Assembly (NCBI GenBank): GCA_023380635.1
Contig: JAMCRP010000001.1
Span: 247,911-311,910 of the forward strand
From: Patescibacteria group bacterium
Lineage (GTDB): Bacteria; Patescibacteriota; Microgenomatia; JAMCZE01
Direction of reading: 5' to 3'
DNA length: 64,000 nt
The notes beneath the pieces were generated by a model. It did not search any database. It was not told the DNA's origin and worked only from the letters and a program-made list of their open reading frames with translations. Made by a program: the position numbers and the translations under genes. Position 1 is the stretch's first letter. Each line of letters starts with the position of its first letter. This document shows, piece by piece, positions 4,827-27,598 of this stretch.

Positions 4827-6187
4827 AATTACTTGTAGTTACCGCACTAACGACGATAGCTGTTCTTTTTTCTCCGAGACAAATATTGGCCACCGGAAAC
4901 CAGCCTCACTACACTCTAATTATTAATCAAGTCCGCGGTTCGGAGTGTTACGATGCGGGAAATATTGATTTTCTAAAACAGCAACTGCAAACCTTGGAAC
5001 AGAAGAACTTGCCAGCCACTTTTGCCGTGCGCTTTGACGCTTTGAATGACGGACAATATCTTTCGGTCCTTAACGATGCTAAAAATAAAGGTTTTGAAAT
5101 GGCGGGGTTCCTGGAAATTACCCCACTTTTAGCCTCCGAAAGCGGGGTAGTTTATCATGGTGATGTCCAAAAATGGTATCAACCGGGAAATCTATATTTA
5201 CTTGGCTACTCTCCCGATGACAGAAAGAAATTGATTGACACCTACATGGCCGGCTTCAAGAAAGCTTTTGGCGGTTTTCCAAAAACCACCGTTTCCTGGA
5301 TTATCGATGCCTATTCGCTGCAATATTTAAGCGACAAATATCACATTCAGGCGCACGAAATAACCCGGGACCAGTGGGGAACCGACCGGCTCACTCTTTA
5401 TGGCGGCCCTGAGCATTACCCTTATGTTCCCAGCCCCAATTGGCCAATAATTCCGGCCACCGGTAGCGCTGTCACTTCTCCGCTGATAATCCGTCAGACA
5501 ATCTCTGATCCGGTGGAAAATTATGGCGATCCGACCAATTCTCACACTTCCCAGCCGAACGACTTTATGCGCCGAACGACGAACTTTGCTTATTTCCAAT
5601 ATCTTTTTGACCAAGCCCATGCCCAAGATTTAAACGACTACACGATTGCCGTTATTGGATTGGAAAACTCTATGGAGGCAAAATATCAGCAGATGTTTTC
5701 CTGGCAGCTCGAATATGTCAGCCAGTGGCGGAAAAAAGATTCAAATAATCAAGTTGTCACCGCGCAAAATTTTCCTTTCAACAAGAAGCAGCCATTATTT
5801 ACTGTCTACGAGGGAAATATTTTTAAAGACCGCTCCTCACGAGCCTGGTGGATAAATACCAATGCCTACCGGATCCGCCTGCGCCTGGCTGGCGGCCGGT
5901 TATTTATCAGCGATTTACGAGTTTACGATTCGAACCTGATCGACCCTTACTCATCACGAACGGCAGTTGGAAGCGCCTCCTGGATTGTCCCCTTTATTGT
6001 GGACAGTTCACGCTGGCCTAACCATCTCCTTGATCCTATCCCTGATGATCAGAAATCGGCGGGTATTGAGTTAAGAAATAATATTACCGATGCCCAAAAA
6101 TACTCCCTGGAAAAAGAAGGGGAGTATAAACTTGTCTTGTATGACGATGCATGTTGCCGTTGCCGTCTTTTCTCCTCAGTGGTTTGA
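4781..6187 (+). CDS. exported hypothetical protein (N-terminal signal anchor), apparently interrupted by a frameshift
   Basis: The 468-aa ORF has an N-terminal TM (LLVVTALTTIAVLF) and I recognise no domain. It ends in non-protein-like sequence (DDACCRCRLFSSVV), while an open +1 frame (6075..6632) continues to a GTGA overlap with the next gene. Confidence 0.6.
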   Translation: MWQRVKKFWTRVHYTKLLVVTALTTIAVLFSPRQILATGNQPHYTLIINQVRGSECYDAGNIDFLKQQLQTLEQKNLPATFAVRFDALNDGQYLSVLNDAKNKGFEMAGFLEITPLLASESGVVYHGDVQKWYQPGNLYLLGYSPDDRKKLIDTYMAGFKKAFGGFPKTTVSWIIDAYSLQYLSDKYHIQAHEITRDQWGTDRLTLYGGPEHYPYVPSPNWPIIPATGSAVTSPLIIRQTISDPVENYGDPTNSHTSQPNDFMRRTTNFAYFQYLFDQAHAQDLNDYTIAVIGLENSMEAKYQQMFSWQLEYVSQWRKKDSNNQVVTAQNFPFNKKQPLFTVYEGNIFKDRSSRAWWINTNAYRIRLRLAGGRLFISDLRVYDSNLIDPYSSRTAVGSASWIVPFIVDSSRWPNHLLDPIPDDQKSAGIELRNNITDAQKYSLEKEGEYKLVLYDDACCRCRLFSSVV

Positions 6188-14320: not shown

Positions 14321-15795
14321 TGCTAAGCCTTAGAAAACTCTGGCCAGTTTTAACTCTTGTCCTTCTGACTATACCGGTTATTTTTCCATTACTCCAACCA
14401 GGTTTTTTTGCCACTGATGACGGCAATTGGATGGTTATTCGCCTTGCCGCCTTTCACCAGACTCTTCGCTCGGGCCAGTTTCCCGTCAGGTTTCTCTATC
14501 CATTGAACCATGGTTTTGGGTATCCGGTCGCCGATTTTTTATACCCCCTGCCGTTTTATCTTGGAGAAATTATTCATCTTGCCGGTTTCGGCTTTGTCGA
14601 TTCGGTTAAGATTATCTTTCTTCTTAGTTTTCTTTGCGGCGCAATTTTCATGTATTTTCTTGTCCGTCCCAGATGGGGAAACCTTGCCGCTCTGGCTGCC
14701 AGTTTGCTGTATACCTATGCCCCTTATCATATTTTTGATACTTACCACCGCGGTTCATTAGGTGAAGTTTTGGCATTAGCTCTTGTTCCCTTAGTTTTTT
14801 ACTTTTTACAACGCCAAAGCTTCTTTGCCGCGGCCTTAAGCTTTGCTGCTTTGATCACCGCCCACAATGTCATCGCTTTGATATTTAGTCCTTTCATCCT
14901 TTTGTTTGCCTTCAAACCGAAGCAGTTTAAATCCGCGTTAATCTTTCTTCTTTTATCTTTGGCAACTTCCGCATTCTTTTGGCTGCCGGCTCTTTATGAT
15001 CTGCAGTTCACCAGAGCAGCCGCTACTCAAGTAGCGGATTTCCGCCAATATTTCCTTGACCGGAATAATTTTCTGTCTTTAGTGGGTCCGGCTATTCCCT
15101 TCGCGATTATTACATCGGTGCTTTTTATCAGGAAGACCAAAAATTATCTTGTTGCCATTTCTCTTTTGGCCGTTTTAGTCTCACTCTTTTTTACCTCCGG
15201 TTTTTCCGGGACTTTTTGGCAATTTCCGCTTCTTCCCAAAGTCGTTCAGTTTCCCTGGAGATTTTTATCTGTCACTGTTTTCGGCTCGTCAATTTTACTG
15301 GCGGTAGTAATTTCCAGACTAAACAGGATTATTGCTATCTTAGTTATTTTTGTTAGTGTAGCCCTGTCTATACCGCTTATTAATGTCGTCAGAACAAATT
15401 TTCCGGACAGCTACTATTCCACAAATGACGACACCACAACCGTTAAAAACGAGTATATGAGTAAATGGGTAGTCTCCGATCCAAAAACCCGGCCGGTCAG
15501 CTATATAGAAAACATCTCCCCTAATATCATCAGAGTTAATCAAATATATTTTCCCGGTTGGGAAGTCTTTGTTGACGGCAAAAAAACCCCTATCTCCTAC
15601 GCCGATAACGGCTTAATTGAAATTGCGGTAACACCGGGATCGCACAATATAAAGGCAGAATTTACGGAGACGCCACTTCGGACTGCCGCAGACATTGTTT
15701 CACTTCTCAGCCTAGGCGTAACGGCGCTATGGGCAACCAGACCCCTGTGGAAAGGAAAGGGTAATAGCGCAAAAGCAGCAGAACCAAAGAAATAA
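14320..15795 (+). CDS. PTPS-related-domain membrane protein (paralog of 3186..4826)
   Basis: ATDDGNWMVIRLAAFHQTLRSGQFPVRFLYPLNHGFGYPVADFLYPLPFYLGEIIHLAGFG is the same signature as in 3186..4826. Confidence 0.65.
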   Translation: MLSLRKLWPVLTLVLLTIPVIFPLLQPGFFATDDGNWMVIRLAAFHQTLRSGQFPVRFLYPLNHGFGYPVADFLYPLPFYLGEIIHLAGFGFVDSVKIIFLLSFLCGAIFMYFLVRPRWGNLAALAASLLYTYAPYHIFDTYHRGSLGEVLALALVPLVFYFLQRQSFFAAALSFAALITAHNVIALIFSPFILLFAFKPKQFKSALIFLLLSLATSAFFWLPALYDLQFTRAAATQVADFRQYFLDRNNFLSLVGPAIPFAIITSVLFIRKTKNYLVAISLLAVLVSLFFTSGFSGTFWQFPLLPKVVQFPWRFLSVTVFGSSILLAVVISRLNRIIAILVIFVSVALSIPLINVVRTNFPDSYYSTNDDTTTVKNEYMSKWVVSDPKTRPVSYIENISPNIIRVNQIYFPGWEVFVDGKKTPISYADNGLIEIAVTPGSHNIKAEFTETPLRTAADIVSLLSLGVTALWATRPLWKGKGNSAKAAEPKK

Positions 15796-16729
15796 TGACC
15801 GCGCTCCAGACGGCAAATTTATTATTTGGCAACAACGCGGAAAAACCCAACGGAACAATAAAATAATGAGGGAGCAGTTCGTGGGTCCCCGTTTGGGCCA
15901 ATGCCCCGATATAAGCCAAAACTATCAAAGCAATTTCCCTTCTTCTATTGATGAAAAAGGCGGGGACTTGGAAAGCTGTGGCGTATTTGATTCCCACAGA
16001 AATAACCCAGCCAAAAGTTCCCCACACTTTATGTTTATTAAGAAAAAGGTAATATCCGAAAATGGCAAAAAAGAGCATCACAATATCCATATGTCCGGCG
16101 ACGACACCTTCATAAATTATTAATGGGTTGAAAGCGAACAGAACCAGGCCTTTGTTTTTAGCTAATTTATAAATAAAGTACGCGCTGCCGACATAAGCAG
16201 CTACCGCCATCCCCTTAAACCAAAAAAGAGTTAAAAGGAATTTATTGAGCCCCAAAAAATAAAACAGAACGGAAATAGGTAAAAAAGTGGGGCCATATGG
16301 ATAGGTCCGGTGTGTCCAGTTCATAAACCGGGTCCAGGTGTCTGTCGGATACATGAGAGCGGTAGTGGTATACGGATTAGCATGGTGGAAAACAGCAATC
16401 CGGGCGTCGAAAATATAGTTAAAAATGTCGTGAGAAAAAGCAGGGTAGCTTATCAAGCCAAGTATGGCCACAGCGACTACCAGCAGAGCCATATTTTTTG
16501 GCAATAGCCTATTAGCGTCACGGATAAATAGAAAATAGAAAATAGAAAATAGAATTGTCAGAACAATAAATATTTCCGTTGACAATGGCCGGTTAAAATA
16601 ACCCAGTTGAATCATCTGATGTTGGAAATTCAAAAACCATGAGGTTTGAAATAGAGTTAAATTGAGATCAATTTGGGAGTAGGAATATATTCCCAGGGAC
16701 AAAAGGAGTAACAAATATAGGATGATCAT
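15707..16729 (-). CDS. polytopic membrane protein, putative GT-C-type glycosyltransferase (DUF2029/GT87-like), function unknown
   Basis: The 340-aa protein is an integral membrane protein with about 9-10 TM helices and lies inside the glycosylation island. The family assignment is tentative. Confidence 0.45.
   Translation of the reverse strand: MIILYLLLLLSLGIYSYSQIDLNLTLFQTSWFLNFQHQMIQLGYFNRPLSTEIFIVLTILFSIFYFLFIRDANRLLPKNMALLVVAVAILGLISYPAFSHDIFNYIFDARIAVFHHANPYTTTALMYPTDTWTRFMNWTHRTYPYGPTFLPISVLFYFLGLNKFLLTLFWFKGMAVAAYVGSAYFIYKLAKNKGLVLFAFNPLIIYEGVVAGHMDIVMLFFAIFGYYLFLNKHKVWGTFGWVISVGIKYATAFQVPAFFINRRREIALIVLAYIGALAQTGTHELLPHYFIVPLGFSALLPNNKFAVWSAVIISLVLLLLRYYPFLSTGVWLPIAPLRLG
16526..16553. 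repeat. perfect 7-nt tandem repeat (AAATAGA)x4 inside CDS 15707..16729
   Basis: The units are aaataga aaataga aaataga aaataga. The repeat encodes FSIFYFLF on the minus strand. Confidence 0.6.
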
Positions 16730-17496
16730 TTGTAGAAACCCCGCAGATCGTTAAGTTTTACCCGGAAGATTTCTTTAAGCATATCTAAGGATTCTTTGAC
16801 AAATTTGCCGCCCCCGCGGCTTTTTCCTGTAGACACATCGCGATCAGCCCAAGTCACGGGTACCTCAGCAATCTTGTAGCCCCGCCGCTGAGCGGCAACC
16901 AACAGTTCCACATCGAAAGAAGTAACTTTCCACCCCTCGACTTGGTTTTTTTCACTGCGGATAACCTGAAGCAACGGAAAAATCTCCTTGGCTACTTTAC
17001 CTTTAAAAGATTTGAAACCTGCCTGGGTATCAACAATCTCCCGAAGGAGAGCTGCCCGCCTAATCTCACGAAAAACTGTTGAGGCCAACTGCCGGAAAGC
17101 TGAAAAATTTTTTCGCTCGCTTCCCCGACTGCCAATAACAACATCAAAACCCTTTTTATAAAAAGGTAGAAGTTTAGCCACTTCAGAAATCGGAGTCGAT
17201 TGGTCCATATCAGTAAAAAGAACTATCTCACCTTCGGTTGCCCGAATCCCGGACCAAACGGCAAAAGGTTTCCCGGCATGATCATTTTGAAGATATTTGA
17301 ATCCGGAAGTTTTTTCGCAGAAATCTTCAGCTAAGCGGCGAGCCTGCTCGTCCGGAGAGCCATCGTCGGAAACGATAACTTCCCATGGATAATCCTGTTT
17401 CTGCAGATAGTCGTTCACCTCTGCCAGCGCTCCTCGCTTCAGATTTTCGGTTTCGTTATAGGAGGGAATAACAACGGAAAGATATGGTTTAGCCAT
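16726..17496 (-). CDS. GT2-family polyprenol-phosphate glycosyltransferase (DPM1/dolichyl-phosphate beta-glucosyltransferase-like)
   Basis: LSVVIPSYNETENL...VIVSDDGSPDE...FTDMDQSTP is the GT2 DPM1-like catalytic domain. Confidence 0.75.
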   Translation of the reverse strand: MAKPYLSVVIPSYNETENLKRGALAEVNDYLQKQDYPWEVIVSDDGSPDEQARRLAEDFCEKTSGFKYLQNDHAGKPFAVWSGIRATEGEIVLFTDMDQSTPISEVAKLLPFYKKGFDVVIGSRGSERKNFSAFRQLASTVFREIRRAALLREIVDTQAGFKSFKGKVAKEIFPLLQVIRSEKNQVEGWKVTSFDVELLVAAQRRGYKIAEVPVTWADRDVSTGKSRGGGKFVKESLDMLKEIFRVKLNDLRGFYK

Positions 17497-17499
17497 ACA

Positions 17500-18990
17500 C
17501 TATTTACCCGTATAGTGTATCAGTTTGTAAATACTTATTCCAGCCGGCCCCATTTTTGAATCGACAATTTCCGCCCGGCCAAAACCGGCGATTTCCCAAA
17601 GCGGATTTCCCAGCGGTTCGCACTTTTTTTCTTCACAGATAACGACCAGGGTGTTAGTTACCGTTTCCCTCCTGGGATCATTATCCGGATTCTCAATTGT
17701 CACCGGCGCCCGGTTCCAGAGTTCCAGGTAATAACGGTAAGCTTGATCGGTATTGAAATTGGATATCAAACCGAGATTATACGGTTGACCTCCGGCGTAA
17801 TCTAAAACTGTCCTGTCTATCTCCTGAATTTGCGACAACATGTTGTGGGGTGGTTGCCAGAGATAAAGATTTTTAATCATAAAGTAGCTTAAGATTGCCG
17901 CTCCGGTCAAAAACACCGGTATCCCTACTTTTCTTTTAAGAAGCGCGCTTCCGGTTACCCCCAGCAAAAGAAATGGCAAGGGATAAAGATAGCCAAAATA
18001 GTGGTCGTTTAGCTGGCCTTGATAAGAACCAACTCCCAGCGTCCCAACAAGCAGCCAGACCAGAATTAAGGCCGCTTTAATCTTAGAATTTTCGGTTTGG
18101 CGTATTTTTGCTACCCAATATCCCACACCAATTAGTGAGACAAAAAAGAAAACATATTCCCAGACTGTCTCCCGGAAACCAAAAAGCATGCCATAAAGCC
18201 GGCGCTGGATCTCCATAATTAGCCAAACAAGATTACTACTTCGGGGGGCCACAGTTTGCCCCCGGCGGGTGATAAACTCCCAGATGCTTTTAGTGTTGGG
18301 AAATCCGTGACGAATCTCAAAGATAATAAACAGCGAGTTGCCTAACAGAAAACCCGCTAAAACCGCGGCAATTTGTCTTAACCAATCTCTTACCGGAAAG
18401 ATTAAGAGCATTGCCAAGCCGATTACCGCCGCCAAAGCCAGATTCATATAATGCAGCTGAAACAAAATGCCGTAACTGACTCCTGCCAGGAAGGTGTAGA
18501 TAATCTTCTTTCTGGTGGCAGACAAATACAAAAGAGCAACGGTTATAAGCGTAAAAAATGGTACCGGATTGGGGTTCCAGGAGAACCGGGAAATATCGAT
18601 CATTTTGGGCGACAGAGCTACCAGAAACGAGGCGATAATTGCTGCCTTGGTATCAAAAAACCTGGCAGCAAACCAGTAGGTTAAGGCTACCATCGCCACT
18701 CCGATCAGAGCCGAAAGATAGGCCGGACCCACGGGATCAAGGCGGAAAAGCCACAGAAAGGGCAGCATGAAATAATAGTAAATCGGCCCGGTAAAAAAAC
18801 CGCCCACCGAAGCGCTCGGTCCCAAAAGTGTCCACTTATGATTGACGATCATCGCCTTAACAACGAGAACATCCCGCCCCTGGTCACCCAAAAACTGGAG
18901 GTATCCTGAAAGGTTGTAAAACCGCAGACCCGCAGCTATTAGCAAAATTACAACGAGCCAAAAACGGCTGTTTCGAAGGAATTTAAACAT
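17500..18990 (-). CDS. GT39/PMT_2-family membrane glycosyltransferase (paralog 4)
   Basis: RFYNLSGYLQFLGDQGRDVLVVKAMIVNHKWTLLGPSASVGGFFTGPIYYY is the ArnT/PMT_2-like N-terminus. The protein is polytopic. Confidence 0.7.
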   Translation of the reverse strand: MFKFLRNSRFWLVVILLIAAGLRFYNLSGYLQFLGDQGRDVLVVKAMIVNHKWTLLGPSASVGGFFTGPIYYYFMLPFLWLFRLDPVGPAYLSALIGVAMVALTYWFAARFFDTKAAIIASFLVALSPKMIDISRFSWNPNPVPFFTLITVALLYLSATRKKIIYTFLAGVSYGILFQLHYMNLALAAVIGLAMLLIFPVRDWLRQIAAVLAGFLLGNSLFIIFEIRHGFPNTKSIWEFITRRGQTVAPRSSNLVWLIMEIQRRLYGMLFGFRETVWEYVFFFVSLIGVGYWVAKIRQTENSKIKAALILVWLLVGTLGVGSYQGQLNDHYFGYLYPLPFLLLGVTGSALLKRKVGIPVFLTGAAILSYFMIKNLYLWQPPHNMLSQIQEIDRTVLDYAGGQPYNLGLISNFNTDQAYRYYLELWNRAPVTIENPDNDPRRETVTNTLVVICEEKKCEPLGNPLWEIAGFGRAEIVDSKMGPAGISIYKLIHYTGK

Positions 18991-19472
18991 TATTTCCAGA
19001 TGATTTGACTGTAGATGATGAAGTTAACGATCAAACCCACCCCAACGCCGGCAACATAAAAGACCAGATAGGCACTGAATTTCTTGGCAAATTTACCAGC
19101 CACGGGTAATCCGGAAACCAGTTTAACTATTCCCAATTTGGACCAAGGTGTCATTAACAATATTGGCTGCTTAAATTTTTTCAGACCAAATATCAGCTCG
19201 CCAGTTTTGAGAAAAACGAACTGAATAATGACCGACCCAAAAGAGAGAATATTAAACTGAACGAACTTCATCGGCACATCGCTCATCGCCAAAGACCGAT
19301 CAGAAAAGGTAAAGAAATTATTGAGAATGAAGTTAGAAATGATGGCCAGCTCCGCTCCCGCCGGTCCAGCAATTGATGGCGCCACATCAACCCGGACACC
19401 CAAAATCAAGACAGTGGTGTTAATAATAAATCCAATAGTGCCGACAATCAGGAATTTTAAGAAATGCGCCAT
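18990..19472 (-). CDS. gtrA: GtrA-family small membrane protein
   Basis: The 160-aa protein has 4 TM helices and a GtrA-like (PF04138) profile. It is adjacent to GT2 genes. Confidence 0.6.
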   Translation of the reverse strand: MAHFLKFLIVGTIGFIINTTVLILGVRVDVAPSIAGPAGAELAIISNFILNNFFTFSDRSLAMSDVPMKFVQFNILSFGSVIIQFVFLKTGELIFGLKKFKQPILLMTPWSKLGIVKLVSGLPVAGKFAKKFSAYLVFYVAGVGVGLIVNFIIYSQIIWK

Positions 19473-19473
19473 A

Positions 19474-20214
19474 CTATGATATTACCTTTTTTACCCGATA
19501 ACGTAAAGCATAATGCAAGAGATTTTTGGTATAGGACAAGGTCTTCATTTTTGATTGTCCTCCGAGACGGTCGAAGTAAACAATCGGCTGCTCGGCGACT
19601 TTAAAATTCGAACTTAAGGCTTCAAAAGCAAAGGCCGGAACAAGGAGCCAGCCGGTATGCATGGCTACTTTCGGCTTTAGAGCCAACCACACTTCTTTGG
19701 TAAACGCCCGGTACAAATTGGTAAATTCTTTCGATTTGCTGGTCCAGGCCAACAGCTGCAATATATTGTTGGCACTGAGGCTAAAAACCTTGCGCCACCA
19801 AGACCAGTTCATAATTTTTCCGCCCCGGCAATACCGGCTGCCAAGGACGATATCTGCCTTTTCCAATCTACGGATAAAGTCCGGAATCTGATCCGGATCG
19901 TTTGACAGATCTGCTTCCATAGTGATTAAAATATCCGCGCCCAATTTTTCCACGGCATAGTCTAGGCCCTTGGAAATACCCAGTCCCAGCTTTCCCGGTC
20001 CGGGAATTTTGCTGTCATAGTAGTGGACATTTTTATACTTTTCGGCCAGTTCTGAAGTTATGGCCGCGGTGTTGTCCGGAGAATGGCTGTCAGAAATAAG
20101 CACTTCCAAATGATATCCGGGAATTTTTTCCTGCTGTGCTAAGACCCGAGCCACAAAACTGCCAATGTTTGCCTCTTCGTTGAAAGTGGGAGCAACAACA
20201 ACAACTTTTTTCAT
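19474..20214 (-). CDS. GT2-family dolichol-phosphate mannosyltransferase-like glycosyltransferase
   Basis: VVVAPTFNEEANI...VLISDSHSPDNT...TMEADLSNDP is DPM1-like. Confidence 0.75.
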   Translation of the reverse strand: MKKVVVVAPTFNEEANIGSFVARVLAQQEKIPGYHLEVLISDSHSPDNTAAITSELAEKYKNVHYYDSKIPGPGKLGLGISKGLDYAVEKLGADILITMEADLSNDPDQIPDFIRRLEKADIVLGSRYCRGGKIMNWSWWRKVFSLSANNILQLLAWTSKSKEFTNLYRAFTKEVWLALKPKVAMHTGWLLVPAFAFEALSSNFKVAEQPIVYFDRLGGQSKMKTLSYTKNLLHYALRYRVKKVIS

Positions 20215-20957
20215 TCAGTCAGTCCTAATCTGTCGGCCCAAATAACAGCGATTACTTTCATTTGCTCGGTTACGGTATTCGTTGTCATTTTGCTGTCACC
20301 GCTGGTCCTTAGATCAAAATTAATGGGAATTTCTTTTATTTTTGCTCCTCGCTTTTTCATTTCGTAAAGCAATCTTTCTTTATAGGAAAATGAGTTTGAA
20401 AATACCTTTCCAAAATTAATGGAATCCAGGTAGCCTTTGACCCTGGCCAACCGGAAACCCGTGGTGAAATCATGAAGATCAAACATCAAGAGACTTATTC
20501 GATAAGTCAGGTTCCCAACCACGGAAAAAAATTTTCGGTCTATTCCCCATTCCTTTGGGATTGATCCGCCTGGAACATATCTTGAACCGATGACATAATC
20601 GTAACCTTTATCAAACTCCGCGACAAACCGCGGCACATAAATAGGATCATGTTGAAAGTCCGCATCCATTTCCATCACTGCGTCAGCCTTTAATTTATCA
20701 ATCGCGTATCTGAATCCCCGGGTATAGGCTGCTCCCAATCCAGCTTTCTCGCCTTCCAGAAGGAACAAGTTCTTATATTTCTTTTGTTTCTCGGCAACGA
20801 TTTTCCCCGTTCCGTCAGGAGATTTATCATCAATAACTAATAGAAGCATTTTGTGGTCTTTTATTTTTGGAAAAACTTTGCCGCACAATTCGTCGATCAT
20901 CCGGCCGATACTCTGGGCCTCATTATAAGTGGGCATGGCAATCACTATCGTGCTCAT
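20211..20957 (-). CDS. GT2-family dolichol-phosphate mannosyltransferase-like glycosyltransferase
   Basis: I chose the start MSTIVIAMPTYNE at 20957. The ORF-track start at 21053 would overlap trmD. Motifs: VIDDKSPDGT...MEMDADFQHDP. Confidence 0.75.
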   Translation of the reverse strand: MSTIVIAMPTYNEAQSIGRMIDELCGKVFPKIKDHKMLLLVIDDKSPDGTGKIVAEKQKKYKNLFLLEGEKAGLGAAYTRGFRYAIDKLKADAVMEMDADFQHDPIYVPRFVAEFDKGYDYVIGSRYVPGGSIPKEWGIDRKFFSVVGNLTYRISLLMFDLHDFTTGFRLARVKGYLDSINFGKVFSNSFSYKERLLYEMKKRGAKIKEIPINFDLRTSGDSKMTTNTVTEQMKVIAVIWADRLGLTE

Positions 20958-20996
20958 TGAATTGAGTATAGCAAGACAAAAGGCTAAAATACAGCT

Positions 20997-21665
20997 ATGA
21001 AGATCGATGTTCTCACTCTCTTTCCGCAAATGTTTTCCGGTCCGTTTGATCAAAGTATTGTGAAGCGGGCAAAGGATAAGGGACTGGTAAATATTGAGCT
21101 ACATGATCTACGCCGCTGGGCCATTGACGAGCGTGGCTCCGTTGACGACCGGCCATATGGCGGCGGTGTTGGCATGGTTCTCAGAATTGAGCCTATTTAT
21201 AACGCCATAGAAGACATTAAAAAGAGAAAAGGAAAAATTAGGATTGTGTTATTAGACGCCCGTGGCAATACTTTCTCTCAACCCAAAGCCAGGAGTTATT
21301 CAAAACTCGATCAACTTATCCTCATATGTGGTCATTACGAAGGAATAGACGAGAGAGTTAAGAAACTAGCCGACGAAAGTATTAGTATCGGTAATTATGT
21401 TTTAACCGGCGGCGAAATTCCGGCCATGGTCATTACTGATGCTGTGACCCGGCTGATCCCCGGGGTTTTAGAAAAACCAGAAGCTGTTCAAATAGAATCA
21501 TTTTCTAACCAGCAACCAGAATCTAGCGACCAGTATCTAGAATATCCGCAGTATACGCGCCCCGAAGAATTTAATGGTTGGAAAGTTCCGGAAGTCCTTC
21601 TTTCCGGCAACCACGCCGAAATTAAAAAATGGCGGGAGAAAATCAGGCCCGCAGGAGAAAAATAA
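20997..21665 (+). CDS. trmD: tRNA (guanine37-N1)-methyltransferase
   Basis: MKIDVLTLFPQMF...YGGGVGMV...ICGHYEGIDERV is canonical TrmD. Confidence 0.92.
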   Translation: MKIDVLTLFPQMFSGPFDQSIVKRAKDKGLVNIELHDLRRWAIDERGSVDDRPYGGGVGMVLRIEPIYNAIEDIKKRKGKIRIVLLDARGNTFSQPKARSYSKLDQLILICGHYEGIDERVKKLADESISIGNYVLTGGEIPAMVITDAVTRLIPGVLEKPEAVQIESFSNQQPESSDQYLEYPQYTRPEEFNGWKVPEVLLSGNHAEIKKWREKIRPAGEK

Positions 21666-21909
21666 TCAGGACAAAGGCTACCAGAGCAGCGATGGCAGTG
21701 TATTCCCCAATTACCTTCAAAGCCAGATTGCCTTCATGAAAATGATGTAACACTCCCCACAAAACATAAAGAACCGACAGCAAAATCACATCCGCGATTT
21801 GAGCGGCCAAATCGAAACGATAATAAATTAGTCCCGCTAGCCCCAAACCCACAATCAGAGCTAACAGCAGGAAATCGACACCGTGTCTGAGGGCAGAATG
21901 AACTTTCAT
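21643..21909 (-). CDS. small hypothetical membrane protein (3 TM)
   Basis: The 88-aa protein is hydrophobic. It overlaps the upstream CAP gene by 4 nt and is the last gene of the sipW operon. Confidence 0.4.
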   Translation of the reverse strand: MKVHSALRHGVDFLLLALIVGLGLAGLIYYRFDLAAQIADVILLSVLYVLWGVLHHFHEGNLALKVIGEYTAIAALVAFVLIIFLLRA

Positions 21910-22796
21910 AAGACGATGCCTCGGCCGATAAGATTAAGGGCAACTAACAAAGCTATAAGTAATACTAGATGCGCCAGATTGTGCCCGGAAAGCCGGACGG
22001 TTTTGCGCCGGTAAACCAGAGCACTATCCACTACCAAGACTCCGAGAAGCAGTACTGTCAAAGCCACAGAAACCGTCTTGGTTAATCCAAAAGCATCAAT
22101 TTTTGGCTGGCTATTTCCTGTTTCCGTGTTTAGAATCATTCCCGCCGGAGTGCTCTGTTTTGCTGATTCGCTGCTGGTTTCCTGGACTTGCGCCGGCACT
22201 GAAGTCTCTTCAACCGTTGGCGTCCGAGCCGACTGCGCCCCAAACATTTGCACGACAAGTGTCGTCTCGTAACCATTATATTTCCCGTTAACCACCGCAA
22301 AGCCGACATCGGCATAGCGGGAATTAAGCAGATTTTCCCGATGCGAGGGTGAATTCATCCAAGCATCAACGACACTTTTAGAATCGCCAAAATCCCTCGC
22401 CAAATTTTCTCCGGCAAAAAGATAGCTGTAGCCGGCGGCGGTAATAAACGACCAAGGGTCTTTTCCCTGCGGCGAAGTGTGGGCCCAATACTGGTTGGCA
22501 AACATGTCCGCGGCTTTTGCTTCTGCTGCTCTATTAAGCTGATCATTAAGTTTTAGCGGCATCTGCCCGGCGGCGACTCTCTGGTCGTTGGTGTATTTAA
22601 GAAGATCGGTAACGGTGATATTACTGGCATAACCCAAAACTCCCGGATTAAATTTGGCGACGCCGGTGAGAATGATCTGAAAAACCAGCAGCAAAACAAT
22701 GTAGGTCGTGACTGAAGAAACATGAAGTGCCTTAGCCTTGTGGTTATTACTCTGCCTCGGCGTTAAAAAATGCAGAAACGGTTCCAAAAGTCTCAT
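21906..22796 (-). CDS. CAP/SCP (PR-1/YkwD-like) domain protein with N- and C-terminal membrane anchors
   Basis: RAAEAKAADMFANQYWAHTSPQGKDPWSFITAAGYSY...GENLARDF...VDAWMNSPSHRENLLNSRYADVGFAV is the CAP-domain (PF00188) signature. Confidence 0.75.
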   Translation of the reverse strand: MRLLEPFLHFLTPRQSNNHKAKALHVSSVTTYIVLLLVFQIILTGVAKFNPGVLGYASNITVTDLLKYTNDQRVAAGQMPLKLNDQLNRAAEAKAADMFANQYWAHTSPQGKDPWSFITAAGYSYLFAGENLARDFGDSKSVVDAWMNSPSHRENLLNSRYADVGFAVVNGKYNGYETTLVVQMFGAQSARTPTVEETSVPAQVQETSSESAKQSTPAGMILNTETGNSQPKIDAFGLTKTVSVALTVLLLGVLVVDSALVYRRKTVRLSGHNLAHLVLLIALLVALNLIGRGIVL

Positions 22797-23537
22797 CTAC
22801 CCATTGTAAGACCTTTTTTGCCGGCGGTGCAACCAGATAAAAATCAGGAGGGCCAAAAACAAAAGAATTAGCAGCCATAACCACCAGTTGCTGTCGGTCT
22901 TATTATCCGCGTAGCCTAAAATCTCCGGCTGCAAGGCGGGACTGCCGGCCAGAGTGGCCGATCCCGAACCAAGATTGTCTTCGCTTCCCAAAATCTCCCC
23001 GGAGTACCCCCCCGAGGATTGGTTACTACTGGTAGCGGACAAAACCACCTGGCTGGAAGTTCCGGCAAAACCAATGACCAGATCAAAACTGGCTGATTTT
23101 CCCTGAAGCTCGTTACCCGGCTCCGGAGCCATTCGCACTTCCATATCAAAATTAGCTGTTTCGGCGCCATTCAAATTGTAAAGGTTTATCTGCCCGTCAT
23201 CCCAAAACTGCTTCATAGTTTTTGCCGGGTTATCACCATATTGCACCACCCCGTTACTTAGAAACTTCACAAAAAATTTGTCCGCTATATTTTCAGACTG
23301 AGAAGTATTAATTGCTTGGACAGATAAAGTATGCCCGGTATTGCCCAAATTTTTAACACTAAAAGATCTTGTCATCGAGATTCCCGGCGCCCAAACTGCC
23401 CCGGAAGGAAACAGCGGACTGTCAGCAGTCACCTGAAGGTCGCCGGAAGTCATCGTGGCAGCTTGGACCGCGCCAGCCCTCAGTCCCGAGAAAACTATCA
23501 GAAGAATAAATATCAATAGACTGCGGCGAAAGTTCAT
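22797..23537 (-). CDS. TasA/camelysin-like secreted protein with C-terminal TM anchor
   Basis: Signal peptide. It has a TasA-like core and shares the C-terminal motif KSASFDLVIGFAGT with the clear TasA homolog at 26517..27101 (GQSASFDLQFFAEQ). The C-terminus WLWLLILLFLALLIFIWLHRRQKR is a TM followed by a basic tail. Confidence 0.55.
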   Translation of the reverse strand: MNFRRSLLIFILLIVFSGLRAGAVQAATMTSGDLQVTADSPLFPSGAVWAPGISMTRSFSVKNLGNTGHTLSVQAINTSQSENIADKFFVKFLSNGVVQYGDNPAKTMKQFWDDGQINLYNLNGAETANFDMEVRMAPEPGNELQGKSASFDLVIGFAGTSSQVVLSATSSNQSSGGYSGEILGSEDNLGSGSATLAGSPALQPEILGYADNKTDSNWWLWLLILLFLALLIFIWLHRRQKRSYNG

Positions 23538-25960
23538 GGTAGTTCTTTTGTCAGCAGGACAGACGAGTTGTCCGGCCTAAATAGCCAGACCTGAAGTTTA
23601 AAATTATGCGGGTTAGTATAGTAAGTACAAACTATCCCTTCGGTCGAACAGGTTGCCAGCTTAATACCGTCTTTCGTAAAAGGATCTTCTCCGGTCAGAT
23701 TGACATTATTGCCCACCACCCCATCAGAAACGGTATCCGTATCGTAGTTTAACTGGTAATTAAATTTGTCGAAAGAACTGATATTTTTCAAGGTAAAGGA
23801 TACCGTTTTCTGATCGTCGGCCATAACCAGGTCCAAAGTTGGCATCGCTGCTTCAGTGGCCGCAATTTCCGCGCTTTCCGTCGCCGGGATAATTTCAGAC
23901 TTTAACTCCTGTTCCGCCCGGTTAGGCGCCCCTGGTGTTCCCCGGTCGTCGGCGGTTCCTTTAAAGTACAAAGCGGTTGTTGCGGGATCGGTATCGGTAT
24001 ACCAGGAAAGCGGCTTTGACCCGTCACCCACTGTGGCCACTCTTTCCATCGCGTAATGTTTGTTCCCATCATGCAAACCTTCTCCCGGAGTTGTCCCATT
24101 CCAAGCCTGATCAATCAAATTATTTTCGTCGGCTGTTTCTACCAGTTTAATTTCCAAGTTGTTATTAGACAAAGATATGCCCGGCGCAACCAGGTTCACA
24201 TGAACACTGCTGTTAAGATCAGACTTGCTGTCTCCCGAATTGTAATGAGAAATCAAAAAGTATCCCTTAGCCGCAATTGTTTGTCCCGAAAGGCTTATGG
24301 GCATGTCCTTAAACATATTATCGTTTTGGTTCCAAGCCATTAGCTTCAAAGCACTCATATCGATAGCCCGGTCGGTAGTATTGCGCAGTTCGATATATTC
24401 ATCGGCTGATCCTGTCGCCGTTCCCATCCACATTAATTCATTAATCACGATGTCCCCTTCGTTTATTTCTGTTGGGGGATCAGCCAAAGGAGTTCTGACT
24501 GGAATAGTTGTATAGGCAATCTCCGACCAATTCGGCGCTTCATCGGCAGCTCTAACCGCGAAATAATAATCCGTGTCCGGTGTCAAGCCGTCGACATGAA
24601 TACTTTCTGTCGATCCCGGATCGAGAGGCTGTTTTGGCTGTACCATTCTATTGGCCGCGTCAAAGCTGCTTTCATTAGTAATGGGGCTTGTGGAGTAGCG
24701 AATATCATATTGGGCCGCCGGACCGGAGGACCAATCGTTGCCATCATTGGCCGGAGCGGTCCAGTGCAAAGTAGCCATGTTCGGATAGGCCGGCTCCGCG
24801 GTTAAGTCAGTAATTTTTGCCGGTGCGGTTACATCAGTAATCACGACTAATTCGTTTATTGCCGAACTGTTGCCACTGTGATCCGTGCAGGAGTAATTGA
24901 CATGGTGGGTCCCGCCCGTCGCGATACTAAAGCTGTTGCCGTTTTGCCAAACCCCGTCATCCACCTGATACCGGCAGCTTGCTTCCTCCGAAGAGCTAAT
25001 GGTGTACACCGCGTGCGCCGGAACGGCCACATAATAAGTACTCACCTTTTTGATGTACGCCCAAGACTGGTAAGTGCGGTCCAAAGCATTTCCGGCATAA
25101 AGCGCCAGGTCAATGTTTGGCCCTCTAAAAGAACTCAGGTCATATTTAAATGTTTGCCAGCTCGAGCCAGCCACGCTGCTGTCCAGCCCTAAAACCTCCC
25201 GGCCATTAAGCCGGATCAAGAAACCGGGATCGTCACCATAGTCGTCACTCTTGAAGTTGTAATCCAAAGCCAAGGTCTTCGCCCCCGCCGGAAACGACTG
25301 CATCAGCCGGTTTTCCCAGACAAAATTTCCCAAATATTCCGGATCGCTGTTATCAGAGCCTATTTTTACCACTTTCTGCCCGTCAATAGTCGTCAGGCTG
25401 ACATCACCCGTCGTTGTCCAGCCGCTTAAATCATCCTTAAAATCGCCATTAACGATTTTTTCTTCCACCAGTTTTGACCAGGAACCGGAAATAGAAAGCG
25501 AAACCGTGGGAGCCACCCGATCAATGGTTAACTTCCAAAGCGGCCCGAAATCACTTTCGTTATCGAAATTATCTTTGGTTTTAACATGCCAATAATAGGT
25601 TCCATCTTTCAAACCCGACTGGGAAATCTGCGGCTCTGTCAACCAGCCCGAGCGATACACCAGATCAGTCATGCCGGCATCACGATAAATCTCAAACTGA
25701 TAGGAAATCGCCGTCACCCCCGGACAGGAACCGGTCACCGTGTTCCAGCTAAACACCGGATTAAGATCCCAAATTGCTCCCACAGAGAAACCGTCCGCCG
25801 GCGCGGGCCAAAACGGAAACGAAGGCGAGTTCCAACAGGCCATAGAAAAGTTCATTCCTTCTACCTTCGCTTCGCTGGTAAAGTAGGAGTTTGTCCCTTC
25901 TGTCTTGAGTAAGTTCAACAACAGAACCAGAAGTAGGATTTTAATTACTATCCTTCTCAT
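23534..25960 (-). CDS. large secreted protein with SipW-cognate-class signal peptide, FN3-like repeats and a lamin-tail domain (LTD)
   Basis: The N-terminus LLKTEGTNSYFTSEAKVEGMNFS matches the TasA-type SipW-cognate signal (GTxAYFxD). The internal GDIVINELMWMGTATGSADEYIELRNTTDRAIDMSALKL is an LTD (PF00932)-like motif. The protein is 808 aa. Confidence 0.6.
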   Translation of the reverse strand: MRRIVIKILLLVLLLNLLKTEGTNSYFTSEAKVEGMNFSMACWNSPSFPFWPAPADGFSVGAIWDLNPVFSWNTVTGSCPGVTAISYQFEIYRDAGMTDLVYRSGWLTEPQISQSGLKDGTYYWHVKTKDNFDNESDFGPLWKLTIDRVAPTVSLSISGSWSKLVEEKIVNGDFKDDLSGWTTTGDVSLTTIDGQKVVKIGSDNSDPEYLGNFVWENRLMQSFPAGAKTLALDYNFKSDDYGDDPGFLIRLNGREVLGLDSSVAGSSWQTFKYDLSSFRGPNIDLALYAGNALDRTYQSWAYIKKVSTYYVAVPAHAVYTISSSEEASCRYQVDDGVWQNGNSFSIATGGTHHVNYSCTDHSGNSSAINELVVITDVTAPAKITDLTAEPAYPNMATLHWTAPANDGNDWSSGPAAQYDIRYSTSPITNESSFDAANRMVQPKQPLDPGSTESIHVDGLTPDTDYYFAVRAADEAPNWSEIAYTTIPVRTPLADPPTEINEGDIVINELMWMGTATGSADEYIELRNTTDRAIDMSALKLMAWNQNDNMFKDMPISLSGQTIAAKGYFLISHYNSGDSKSDLNSSVHVNLVAPGISLSNNNLEIKLVETADENNLIDQAWNGTTPGEGLHDGNKHYAMERVATVGDGSKPLSWYTDTDPATTALYFKGTADDRGTPGAPNRAEQELKSEIIPATESAEIAATEAAMPTLDLVMADDQKTVSFTLKNISSFDKFNYQLNYDTDTVSDGVVGNNVNLTGEDPFTKDGIKLATCSTEGIVCTYYTNPHNFKLQVWLFRPDNSSVLLTKELP

Positions 25961-26462
25961 TTCGTTTTTCCTGAATTAACCTTTTCACTTCATTTTTAAT
26001 ATTCAATAATTCGCTATAAACAATGACTGTCCCCGGAATAACAATTAAAATAATTAGCCCGGTTAAAGTTTGGGCAAATGAAACCGGGAAACCTAATAAG
26101 GGAACAGAAAATATAACTTTTCCGATAACATAACTCCTGAAAATCAGATCTTGATCGGGAGCATCATTCGCATCTCCTTTAACCCGATAATACTCGGAGC
26201 TTCCCTGCATTCCCGTTTCCACAATTCGATGGGTGACGGTAAATTTGTTTCCTGGAATCCTTGCCGTAATAACATCACCAATAGAATAATTTTTTTCTTC
26301 TTTATCTAATATCAATGATCCTTTGGGAATCTTTGGCGACATGCTGCCGGAATTAACCGTAAAGAATTTGTATTTTCCGGTAACAGGCAAAGACGGCGAC
26401 GCGGCAAAAAATGCCAGAATTATAATTCCAGCAATTAGAAAATAAAGCGCAATGTTTCTCAT
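25941..26462 (-). CDS. sipW: signal peptidase I, SipW-type (S26B, archaeal/eukaryal-like)
   Basis: N-terminal TM. The catalytic-Ser motif FTVNSGSMSPKIPKGSLIL matches B. subtilis SipW VVSGSMEP. It is about 173 aa with a C-terminal TM. Confidence 0.8.
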   Translation of the reverse strand: MRNIALYFLIAGIIILAFFAASPSLPVTGKYKFFTVNSGSMSPKIPKGSLILDKEEKNYSIGDVITARIPGNKFTVTHRIVETGMQGSSEYYRVKGDANDAPDQDLIFRSYVIGKVIFSVPLLGFPVSFAQTLTGLIILIVIPGTVIVYSELLNIKNEVKRLIQEKRNEKDSN

Positions 26463-26516
26463 ATCTTTCCCTTAATGGATTGCCTCTCGGGCGAGAGGCA
26501 ATCGGAAAAGGAACGA

Positions 26517-27101
26517 TTAGAAATACGACGAACCAGTGTGAGATTGCTCCGCAAAAAATTGCAGGTCAAAACTTGCCGATTGGCCCTGGTAATTATTATC
26601 CACTGTTGTGGGAACTTTGAAATCCAAAATTATAGTGTCGTTTTTTCCAGGCGCCAAAACATGCGCTGCAGTTGCATCTCGATATACTGCCGTTCCTAAA
26701 ATATCAACGTTATTAAGCCATGTGGATACGGGCTGGCCGTTTCCCCAATCAGGCGTATAAATTCCTTGATCAGAACCCTCAACCTGACCATAAACCGTGA
26801 CTCTTAGTACCCCCAATAAATTAGGATTGGTCTGATTAATAGCACTTACTCTAAGAGAAGCGATGTCTAAAGTTCCACTATTACCTAGCGTAACCCATTT
26901 TCGAACCATGTCTCCGGGCTTAAGATTGGGAAAACTTACATGAGTTGTCCAGCTAGCGGAATTATTGCTTAGCTTCAGTGTTCCGGTCGCAAAGCTCATC
27001 CCGCTTATTGTCGAAGTGTCATTAAAATAGGCAGCAGTAGAACCAGCGACTGCGGCCGTAAGCGCCAAACAAATTAGTAAGCTTAAAATAATTCTCCTCA
27101 T
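26517..27101 (-). CDS. tasA: TasA/camelysin-family (Peptidase_M73-like) secreted protein
   Basis: AGSTAAYFNDTSTISGMSFATGTLKLSNNSASWTTHVSFPNLKPGDMV aligns closely with B. subtilis TasA GGTWAAFNDIKSKDATFASGTLDLSAKENSASVNLSNLKPGDKL. A strong SD (AGGAGGTG) lies 6 nt upstream. Confidence 0.8.
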   Translation of the reverse strand: MRRIILSLLICLALTAAVAGSTAAYFNDTSTISGMSFATGTLKLSNNSASWTTHVSFPNLKPGDMVRKWVTLGNSGTLDIASLRVSAINQTNPNLLGVLRVTVYGQVEGSDQGIYTPDWGNGQPVSTWLNNVDILGTAVYRDATAAHVLAPGKNDTIILDFKVPTTVDNNYQGQSASFDLQFFAEQSHTGSSYF

Positions 27102-27165: not shown

Positions 27166-27262
27166 TAACCGTATTTTTCTGAGACAAAATCGCCCTCTCT
27201 CATCACTGACAGGCAGTACCTTGAGGATATAGCCTCTTATATAGGATTGTCAAGGGGAAGAT

Positions 27263-27598
27263 TTATTGGGGTTTATGGGCGAGAGCTAGCGAAGAAAGTC
27301 CGGAAACGAGAACTAAGCCCATAACAAGATAACCAAAATCTTCCGGACCGGTGGATGGAATAGCGGAAACAGTGGAAGTTTTACTGCCGCCATTATTCAG
27401 TAAAGATGACGGTGTGGCTGACTCAGTGTTTTCTTCCGGCGGGGTACTGGTGACAACCGGCGGTTTCGGAGTGAGAAATCTTTCGCGGATGCGTTCGCCT
27501 GTCCAGCGGGCCAAAAGCACGACCAAGACCAAAAGAATGATGCCGACAATGATCGCTGCTGCCTGACGGGCTCTCTCTTCCATAACCGCAATATACAC
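27263..27598 (-). CDS. hypothetical small surface protein: N-terminal TM, Ser/Thr/Pro-rich linker, C-terminal LPXTG-like sorting signal
   Basis: The C-terminus is IPSTGPEDFGYLVMGLVLVSGLSSLALAHKPQ, that is, an IPxTG motif, a hydrophobic stretch and a basic tail. No sortase is present in the window. Confidence 0.4.
   Translation of the reverse strand: MYIAVMEERARQAAAIIVGIILLVLVVLLARWTGERIRERFLTPKPPVVTSTPPEENTESATPSSLLNNGGSKTSTVSAIPSTGPEDFGYLVMGLVLVSGLSSLALAHKPQ

Follow-up and report, generated by a model that had tools for sequence, protein, structure and literature searches.

In Bacillus subtilis, the fibre protein TasA carries its donor strand (residues 28-38) directly after the SipW cleavage site, followed by a linker (residues 39-47) and a segment (residues 48-61) that self-complements the groove in the monomer (PMC9674648). 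Deletion of residues 28-38 impairs fibre formation, and TapA, which possesses a donor-like N-terminus, was proposed as the nucleator (PMC9674648, PMC10151520). In the bundling pili of the archaeon Pyrobaculum calidifontis (PDB 7UEG), the TasA homolog AbpA polymerises by donor-strand insertion, and AbpB, encoded downstream of AbpA, was suggested both to initiate the filament by means of a complementing strand and to serve as an adhesin. The model of the haloarchaeal tafi comprises the tip protein TafC (a donor strand and an adhesin domain), the adapter TafE, the shaft subunit TafA, the terminator TafF with a C-terminal transmembrane (TM) region and the signal peptidase TafD; the order of the subunits rests on AlphaFold models and not on an experimental structure (PMC11821415). 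In our study, we analysed a stretch of 64,000 nucleotides (the window) from a Patescibacteria group bacterium (assembly GCA_023380635.1, contig JAMCRP010000001.1, positions 247,911 to 311,910) and found a minus-strand operon whose first four genes, g1 to g4, seem to us rather probably to encode a surface fibre that is polar, anchored in the membrane and put together by donor-strand exchange. A fibre module of the SipW/TasA type, with an anchor subunit and a large adhesin, had been proposed in an earlier note on this DNA, and every computational test that was run (protein families, the g4 domain, the g3 segment, gene order and gene fusions) supported that proposal. The four genes are as follows.

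26517-27101, minus strand: g1, TasA/camelysin-family major subunit, 194 amino acids (aa) (PF12389, TIGR04088)

25941-26462, minus strand: g2, SipW-type (archaeal/ER-type) signal peptidase I, 173 aa (TIGR02228)

23534-25960, minus strand: g3, secreted multi-domain protein, 808 aa (PF00932 lamin-tail domain, fn3, AlphaFold2 model)

22797-23537, minus strand: g4, TasA-superfamily domain devoid of a donor strand, with a C-terminal TM helix, 246 aa (hhalign, Foldseek)

Comparison with described fibre systems

The Bacillus tapA-sipW-tasA system (TasA fibre, PDB 8AUR) and the present locus were found to share a PF12389 major subunit with a SipW-type signal, and an archaeal-type signal peptidase encoded in the operon. 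In both, the donor strand comes first after cleavage, and a minor protein (TapA there, g3 here) joins a donor-like N-terminus to an unrelated body. The two differ in several respects: here the tasA-type gene is the first and a hairpin comes next, g1 is much smaller (about 171 aa when mature), g3 contains six different beta domains including a lamin-tail domain (LTD) and is not homologous to TapA, and in this clade fusions of SipW to g3 or g4 are frequent. A counterpart of g4 is absent from B. subtilis, hence its fibres are matrix fibres and are not anchored in the membrane.

The likeness to tafi was found in architectural features only, namely a dedicated peptidase (g2), a protein with a donor-like segment and adhesin-type domains (g3) and a TasA-like domain with a TM helix (g4). 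The tafi are archaeal and those of the haloarchaea are exported by Tat, whereas the signals here (MRRIILSLLICLAL... and similar) look Sec-type by eye; neither an adapter subunit nor a TafG/DUF5305 gene is present, and Pfam scans of g1 to g6 gave no match to DUF5305 or DUF1102. The tafi-related DUF1102 clusters occur in Thermococcales and Archaeoglobus. The subunits here belong to the TasA/Peptidase_M73 family. The g1-g4 locus, in its architecture, would work like tafi and is not filed as a member of that group. For the archaeal bundling pili, no dedicated signal peptidase and no membrane-anchored terminator have been described, and the composition of the operon is different. The chaperone-usher pili (Fim/Pap) and the sortase-assembled pili of Gram-positive bacteria also differ: the module contains no periplasmic chaperone, usher or sortase, and the proteins are not homologous. 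Cleavage of the signal peptide would here be the activating step, in place of a chaperone-usher or transpeptidase step.

The major subunit and the signal peptidase

The identification of g1 as a TasA/camelysin homolog was confirmed. The protein matched PF12389 (Peptidase_M73) with 59.4 bits (cutoff 22.5) over positions 18-193 of the 196 in the profile, and it matched the SipW-cognate signal model TIGR04088 with 23.9 bits as a full protein and 26.6 bits as an N-terminal fragment (cutoff 19). Membership in the TasA/camelysin family was also supported by the jelly-roll, or beta-sandwich, fold of the TasA fibre subunit. Against NF046066, the NCBIfam equivalog of B. subtilis TasA, g1 scored 39.6 bits where 450 are required, in an alignment confined to the N-terminal 70 residues. 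Judged by these profile scores, g1 is a distant member of the TasA/camelysin family and not a TasA ortholog. A SipW-type signal peptide opens the protein; the donor-strand segment, AYFNDTSTISGMS, is complete, and FATGTLKLS, NNSASWTTHVSFPNLK and PGD come after it. Aligned by eye, these segments correspond to residues 28-38, 39-47 and 48-61 of B. subtilis TasA (ranges as given in PMC9674648) and to its PGD. On the level of sequence, g1 thus has the prerequisites of polymerisation by donor-strand exchange, with the donor and self-complementing segments as well as the PGD, and it may be expected to polymerise in this way.

The second gene, g2, had been taken for a SipW-type signal peptidase, and the match to TIGR02228 (archaeal-type signal peptidase I; 89.3 bits, cutoff 51.85) agreed with this. 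The Bacillus SipW equivalog NF046067 was matched with E=2e-29 and 102.5 bits, and since this score lies under the cutoff of 190, g2 is SipW-like and not an ortholog. The putative catalytic residues, read from the translation, are Ser40 (SGSMSP), His78 (THRI) and Asp97 (GDAN), a Ser/His(/Asp) rather than a Ser/Lys arrangement. The protein contains TM helices at both the N- and the C-terminus.

A donor-like segment in the multi-domain protein g3

The g3 protein, with 808 aa, is large and not giant, as it had earlier been called. It begins with a signal anchor and a donor-strand-like segment (residues 23-40, TNSYFTSEAKVEGMNFSM) without a TasA body behind it, followed by an Ig-like, a jelly-roll (CBM-like), an OmpL47-type barrel, an FN3, a lamin-tail and a C-terminal beta-sandwich domain. 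The FN3-like and lamin-tail domains noticed earlier were recovered by the profiles: fn3 (PF00041) matched residues 382-480 with 31.1 bits (cutoff 25) and LTD (PF00932) matched residues 500-608 with 35.7 bits, which is marginal against its cutoff of 34.3; both regions were beta-rich in the AlphaFold2 (AF2) model. The match to the OmpL47-type barrel was sub-threshold (31.6 bits, cutoff 40). When the whole model was submitted to Foldseek, the matches were confined to generic multi-Ig/FN3 ectodomains (e.g., those of titin, receptor tyrosine phosphatases and alpha2-macroglobulins) and pointed to no specific function of the jelly-roll or the C-terminal domain, and no nuclease or protease domain was found in g3 by the Pfam and NCBIfam scans.

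Of the TasA segments, g3 retains only the first one: SYFTSEAKVEGMN is followed by FSMACW, and the chain then runs straight into the Ig-like domains. The segment shares the hydrophobic positions Y2, F3, I/V9, M12 and F14 with g1. A SipW-cognate N-terminus had been claimed for g3, and this claim held in part; TIGR04088 gave no match, even at E<=10 and with residues 1-60 alone, but the resemblance itself proved real with a hidden Markov model (HMM) of TasA only. This model, of 19 columns, was built from 38 TasA N-termini of other genomes, with g3 and the sequences of the window left out, and it gave 11.4 bits for residues 23-40 of g3, 17.1 for g1 and -1.7 for g4, the best of 3678 open reading frames (ORFs) outside the module reaching 6.5. 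By its N-terminal sequence, g3 resembles the proteins with SipW-cognate signals and is not a member of the group as the curated model defines it. The AF2 model of g3 had a pLDDT (predicted local distance difference test) of 79, and residues 19-39, with values <50, formed the only low-confidence stretch at the N-terminus, followed by six confident beta domains; low confidence is what would be expected for a strand that has no partner in its own chain. The model TIGR04087 (YqxM_for_SipW) was matched neither by the full length nor by the N-terminus of g3, which is thus not a TapA homolog. By analogy, g3 probably works like TapA or TafC, as initiator of the fibre and distal adhesin.

A membrane-anchored TasA-superfamily protein devoid of the donor strand

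The g4 protein gave no match in Pfam or NCBIfam. The earlier reading of it as a TasA-like protein with a TM anchor was borne out by a profile-profile match to the g1 family and by a C-terminal TM helix. The alignments of the two families, compared with hhalign, matched with 99.3% probability (E=3.8e-20) over 152 columns, and iterated searches of the ORFs from all fetched loci linked the g1 and g4 families in both directions. In the hhalign alignment, a gap of 10 residues in g4 lies exactly opposite the YFNDTSTISG donor strand of g1, and mature g4 begins, after an AxA-type signal peptide, at TSGDLQVTA, the equivalent of TasA residues 39-47. The protein consists of a TasA-superfamily beta domain (residues ~27-166), a disordered Ser/Gly-rich linker of about 50 aa, a TM helix (residues ~218-240) and a basic tail. 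Its best structural match by Foldseek was the fibre form of TasA, and 7ueg_A was also among the matches. A search of the PDB sequences with the full-length g4 profile retrieved FN3 proteins only, because some of the relatives carry an FN3 insert, and was uninformative on the N-terminal domain.

The same anatomy was found across the family. Of 48 TasA-type proteins, 46 bore the donor motif, whereas among the 42 sequences assigned to g4 only one did, a misclassified TasA; a TM helix in the C-terminal half was present in 33 of the 42 g4-type proteins, several of the nine exceptions ending at contig ends, and in none of the 48 TasA-type proteins. An exhaustive search gave 628 representatives of the g4 family after clustering at 50% identity, and g4 therefore represents a large, unnamed family. 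As far as their sequences tell, the module is made up of three kinds of protein: donor and acceptor (g1), donor only (g3), and acceptor only with a membrane anchor (g4). The g4 proteins are a new branch of the TasA superfamily, and g4 probably works, by analogy with TafF, as acceptor-only terminator and membrane anchor.

These features bear on the possibility of a matrix fibre of the Bacillus type, where g3 would sit at the cell surface like TapA, the TasA fibres would grow outward without an anchor and g4 would be an accessory outside the polymer. The gene set does match tapA-sipW-tasA functionally, and TapA localises with the membrane in B. subtilis. However, g4 is, family-wide, a TasA-superfamily domain with a TM anchor and without the donor strand, a groove-only subunit has no obvious role outside a polymer, and g3 is left without an anchor of its own after cleavage of the signal peptide. 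We consider this arrangement quite unlikely, and we favour an anchored fibre with g4 as part of it.

Conservation of gene order and gene fusions

Contig look-ups and a scan of GTDB genomes yielded 86 loci, which were reduced to 37 non-redundant ones. The loci were gathered through homology to g3, and all frequencies are conditional on the presence of g3. In the 37 loci, a g4-type gene was found directly downstream of the g3-type gene, with SipW and one to three TasA genes upstream. The order TasA (one to three copies), hairpin, SipW, g3, g4 was found across Roizman-, Gottesman-, Beckwith-, Woese-, Moran-, Andersen-, Berkel-, Sacchari- and Parcubacteria; lineages were taken from record titles, many of which are unreliable (many CPR-like contigs, i.e., those of the candidate phyla radiation, are titled 'uncultured Gammaproteobacteria' or 'Pseudomonadales'). 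The survey of related genomes that the earlier note had called for thus showed a four-gene core whose order is conserved across many lineages of Patescibacteria. The full-length relatives of g3 came from metagenome-assembled genomes of Roizman-, Gottesman- and Beckwithbacteria, in agreement with the CPR-like organism that had been suspected. In distant lineages, g3 was shorter (430-580 aa) and the LTD was kept.

Two single loci may be mentioned here. One record titled 'Candidatus Bathyarchaeia archaeon' (L028, DATKWX010000096.1) bears the TasA-SipW-g3-g4 module, which could be a case of mis-binning or of transfer. Another locus (L004) contains, besides the g3-type protein, a separate LTD-domain protein of 283 aa just upstream of its TasA gene (5228-6079).

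In-frame fusions of SipW with g3 were found in 12 of the 37 loci (L002, L007, L009, L011, L014, L018, L022, L027, L031, L038, L041 and L042). The topology allows such a fusion: the C-terminus of SipW is cytoplasmic, and the signal anchor of g3 leads the chain back across the membrane. Together with SipW-g4 and g3-g4 fusions, which were found in other proteins of the family, these fusions link the parts of the core to one another.

Co-variation between g3 and TasA

The post-cleavage 19-mers of 33 non-redundant genomes were obtained by HMM-anchored ungapped extraction and compared with BLOSUM62. A search for the donor motif by regular expression was too brittle and was replaced by this extraction, and later by the TasA-only HMM. 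The 19-mer of g3 was found to be closer to the TasA of its own genome than to the TasA of other genomes (mean BLOSUM62 score 41.3 vs 24.6, permutation p<=5e-5), and the cognate TasA ranked within the top three in 22 of the 33 genomes. The co-variation sits in positions 6-19 (30.6 vs 15.8); positions 1-5, on which the peptidase would act, show it only weakly. Its place in positions 6-19 fits a shared structural role, such as insertion into one kind of groove, better than peptidase recognition alone. Gene conversion between the g3 and TasA genes could produce the same pattern.

The operon could also be a SipW-dependent secretion cassette without any polymer, in which g1 and g4 would act as surface proteins or proteases of the camelysin kind, g3 would be a secreted LTD protein unrelated to them, with DNA or glycans, for example, as its ligands, and the shared dedicated signal peptidase would be the sole tie between them. 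The Pfam family of g1 is named for a metalloprotease, and the LTD region of g3 weakly matches the LTD part of the ExeM nuclease; nevertheless, the similarity and co-variation of g3 with TasA reach at least 14 residues past the cleavage site, the donor strand is cleanly deleted in g4, among known structures g4 matches TasA in its fibre form best, and neither a nuclease nor a protease domain was detected in g3. Such a cassette appears improbable. The anchored fibre accounts better than either this explanation or the matrix fibre for the anatomy of g4 and for the co-variation.

The hairpin after the major-subunit gene

A stem-loop was found in the spacer between the major-subunit gene and sipW.

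26463-26516, minus strand: intercistronic stem-loop between g1 and g2 (folding energy against shuffles)

The hairpin has a folding free energy of -30.6 kcal/mol (z -6.1), and none of 200 shuffles was equally stable. Its core is a perfect stem of 11 bp (26478-26503), unique within the window, and its outer stem pairs with the Shine-Dalgarno region of g2. It is devoid of a T-run and was not called as a terminator in the scan. About 25 of 31 loci, those of phylum-level relatives included, have a strong hairpin of unrelated sequence at the equivalent position, in the spacer that separates sipW from the last TasA gene. The g1/g2 hairpin may act as an attenuator, as an element of RNA stability or by occluding the ribosome-binding site, and it probably keeps TasA in a high ratio to the minor components.

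Exchange of the exposed bodies among relatives

The proteins of the operon were found to evolve at different rates. Identity to the closest relative (L001) was 31% for g1, 46% for g2, 53% for g3 and 55% for g4, against 78% for g5 and 76% for g6, the last two genes of the operon, and 66-85% for the flanking proteins. The G+C content at third codon positions (GC3) was 0.36 in g1, 0.33 in g2 and 0.53 in g3 and g4 (0.50-0.53 in g3 to g5), with a background of 0.46 +/- 0.03. Such unevenness is compatible with distinct histories of g1-g2 on the one hand and g3-g4 on the other.

The locus L001 (6718-11110) was further compared with L013 (4743-8909); the two, obtained in different studies, are related almost at the level of strains. 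The flanks were 96-100% identical, SipW 98.9%, one TasA 95.7%, g5 97.6% and g6 100%, whereas g3 was only 39.9% identical overall and the second TasA 47.5%. Within the latter two proteins, the first ~40 residues, comprising the signal and the donor strand, were 90-97% identical (92% in g3), and the identity collapsed right after them. The core of g4 was 97-100% identical, with differences in the signal peptide and the linker. The retention of the connector and the chassis, together with the swapping of the exposed bodies, argues for surface exposure and for diversifying exchange among Patescibacteria, and against a recent import from Firmicutes.

A recent horizontal transfer of the operon from Firmicutes, the outcome by which the earlier note said that its reading would fall, was contradicted by the equivalog scores and by synteny. 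GC3 is uneven within the operon and the pooled codon usage lies outside the background range, as might be expected of an insert; the uneven composition equally fits the exchange of cassettes among Patescibacteria, as between L001 and L013. The scores of g1 (39.6 vs 450) and g2 (102.5 vs 190) are far under the cutoffs of the Bacillus equivalogs, the same housekeeping synteny (AspRS/TsaE/TsaB to TrmD/glycosyltransferases) was found in relatives at 30-55% identity, and every full-length relative of g3 that was found lies on a CPR-type contig. We hold a recent origin in Firmicutes to be hardly credible.

Proposed assembly of the fibre

The anchored fibre would be assembled as follows, its polymerisation, its polarity and the location of g3 at the tip being read from the architecture of the proteins. 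All subunits would be exported by Sec, and SipW (g2) would cut the signal peptides of g1 and g3, by which a new N-terminus, the donor beta-strand, is set free. As g3 has a donor strand without a TasA body, it could only donate and hence would start the chain; it would give its strand to the first g1, nucleate the fibre and end at the distal tip, where its Ig, jelly-roll, FN3 and lamin-tail domains would be displayed as an adhesin. Each g1 would take the previous strand in its groove and offer its own strand to the next, thus forming the shaft. As g4 has a TasA-like groove domain without a donor strand, it could only accept and hence would be the terminator; it would take up the last strand, stop the polymerisation and tie the fibre to the membrane through its linker and TM helix. 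The hairpin after g1 would hold the shaft subunit in excess over the minor components.

The main rival is that g4 serves as a membrane dock, the strand of g3 inserting directly into the groove of g4, so that an anchored adhesin results with a very short shaft or none; TasA (g1) would then form a separate structure or intercalate only occasionally. The g3 and g4 genes are always adjacent, here with an overlap of 4 nt, both the donor strand of g3 and the core of g4 are kept between L001 and L013, and one protein (P0126) unites the g3 donor strand, the LTD, the g4 domain and the TM helix in a single chain, all of which would suit such a dock. On the other hand, the module is always preceded by one to three TasA genes, whose products all have the donor strand and the groove complete; the donor segment of g3 co-varies with TasA, the placement of the hairpin suggests a subunit made in excess, and in the tafi precedent a shaft separates the tip from the anchor. 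The dock is, on balance, unlikely.

A number of points weigh against the fibre with a g1 shaft as set out above. Judged by its domain composition, P0126 fits the direct complementation of g4 by the g3 strand as well as, or better than, a long fibre. Fusions of SipW with g4 (P0138 and P0181) suggest that g4 may also be a substrate of SipW. The finding of g4 downstream of g3 in 37/37 loci is conditional, because the loci were found through g3. The curated TIGR04088 model fails to recognise the N-terminus of g3, and the g3 donor segments of the relatives score low with the TasA-only HMM (median 4.1 bits). Some g3 proteins of relatives (e.g., P0005) hold a complete TasA domain at the position of the donor segment, and g3 is thus not donor-only everywhere. 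The adhesin role suggested for g3 derives solely from the types of its domains.

Other genes of the operon and its surroundings

The remaining features of the operon are the following.

21906-22796, minus strand: g5, CAP/SCP (YkwD-like) membrane protein, 296 aa (PF00188)

21643-21909, minus strand: g6, polytopic membrane protein, 88 aa (weak DUF5656 match)

27224-27253, minus strand: candidate operon promoter, sigma-70-like TTGACA-18-TATCCT, about 120 nt upstream of g1 (consensus scan, 10/12 matches)

All six ORFs, g1 to g6, that had been reported on the minus strand at 21643-27101 of the window were found there. They had also been described as translationally coupled, which agrees with four of the five junctions (an overlap of 20 nt between g2 and g3, of 4 nt between g3 and g4 and of 4 nt between g5 and g6, and zero gap between g4 and g5) and does not agree with the g1/g2 junction, where a spacer of 54 nt is present. 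The consensus scans for terminators and promoters gave no more sites than shuffled sequence, and the candidate promoter is weak evidence because such sites are no commoner in the region than in shuffles.

The CAP/SCP domain of g5 was confirmed with PF00188 (78.5 bits, cutoff 21.1); the YkwD model TIGR02909 was matched with 105.8 bits (E=1.4e-30), under its cutoff of 171. The protein contains an extracellular CAP domain with one N-terminal and two C-terminal TM helices. The match of g6 to DUF5656 (20.2 bits) is below the cutoff of 23.3. A g5-type gene was found to follow g4 in 10 of the 28 loci with enough downstream sequence, among them distant loci without the TrmD synteny, and g6 accompanied it in all 10; both were absent from the loci of the Roizmanbacteria type. 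The presence of CAP and g6 after g4 where the TrmD synteny has been lost suggests more than inherited synteny. A share in the fibre itself is not supported, given their presence in only 10 of 28 loci and their evolution at a housekeeping rate (76-78% identity to L001 vs 31-55% in g1 to g4). The two genes are probably an associated envelope pair, linked by position, with a separate function in the envelope.

The operon is flanked by AspRS, an S11 peptidase, TsaE and TsaB on one side and by TrmD and a glycosyltransferase/GtrA/PMT_2 cluster on the other, as it is in L001. The convergent genes g6 (minus strand) and trmD (plus strand, 20997-21665) share 23 nt at their 3' ends (21643-21665). Past trmD, downstream of the operon, the region 15707-21053 contains three GT2 glycosyltransferases and GtrA-like, PMT_2-like and MptA_B-like membrane proteins; the cluster is syntenic in L001, which has an additional YfhO-like membrane protein. 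A candidate role of this cluster is the glycosylation of surface proteins, and the Ser/Thr-rich linkers of g4 and g5 could be among its targets.

Between tsaB and g1, an ORF of 111 aa (orf111; 27263-27598, minus strand) with an N-terminal TM helix was found. At its C-terminus, an invariant SAIPSTG precedes a hydrophobic helix and a short tail, an arrangement that resembles a sortase sorting signal (LPXTG-like), and the ORF is kept at the same position in L001, L013 and L007. In Roizmanbacteria loci, a sortase gene is present directly upstream of the TasA gene (6513-7202 in L002). With the Roizmanbacteria sortase as seed, jackhmmer retrieved no sortase from the window, and orf111 is thus without a local partner.

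Meaning for Patescibacteria

The module was not described in the literature searched on TasA, SipW or LTD modules in CPR bacteria and Saccharibacteria, the sole mention being that of PF12389 homologs in Patescibacteria in a Pfam census. What is most likely new here is a TasA-type fibre of bacteria that depends on Sec and SipW, is anchored in the membrane and has an exchangeable tip; the principle itself was already known. The cultivated Patescibacteria live attached to other microbes. For the recognition and holding of the host, type IV pili have so far been the main candidates (PMC12206443). We tentatively suggest, as a possibility well short of the fibre itself, that Patescibacteria widely carry a modular pilus with a conserved chassis (SipW, the donor strands and g4), activated by SipW cleavage, whose tip and shaft bodies are exchanged by recombination, and that this fibre, instead of or beside type IV pili, determines the host cell or surface of the episymbiont. 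If the anchored fibre exists, the ultra-small, host-dependent Patescibacteria would possess a second class of attachment filament besides type IV pili, in a module that occurs in many candidate phyla, including Saccharibacteria, of which there are cultivated strains. Initiator, shaft and terminator would be readable from the presence or absence of one short N-terminal strand. The biology of TasA would likewise extend from matrix fibres to true pili in bacteria, with ties to tafi and to the bundling pili. The replacement of the adhesin body with retention of the connector, between near-identical strains, is the pattern that would be expected of a determinant of host or surface specificity under diversifying selection.

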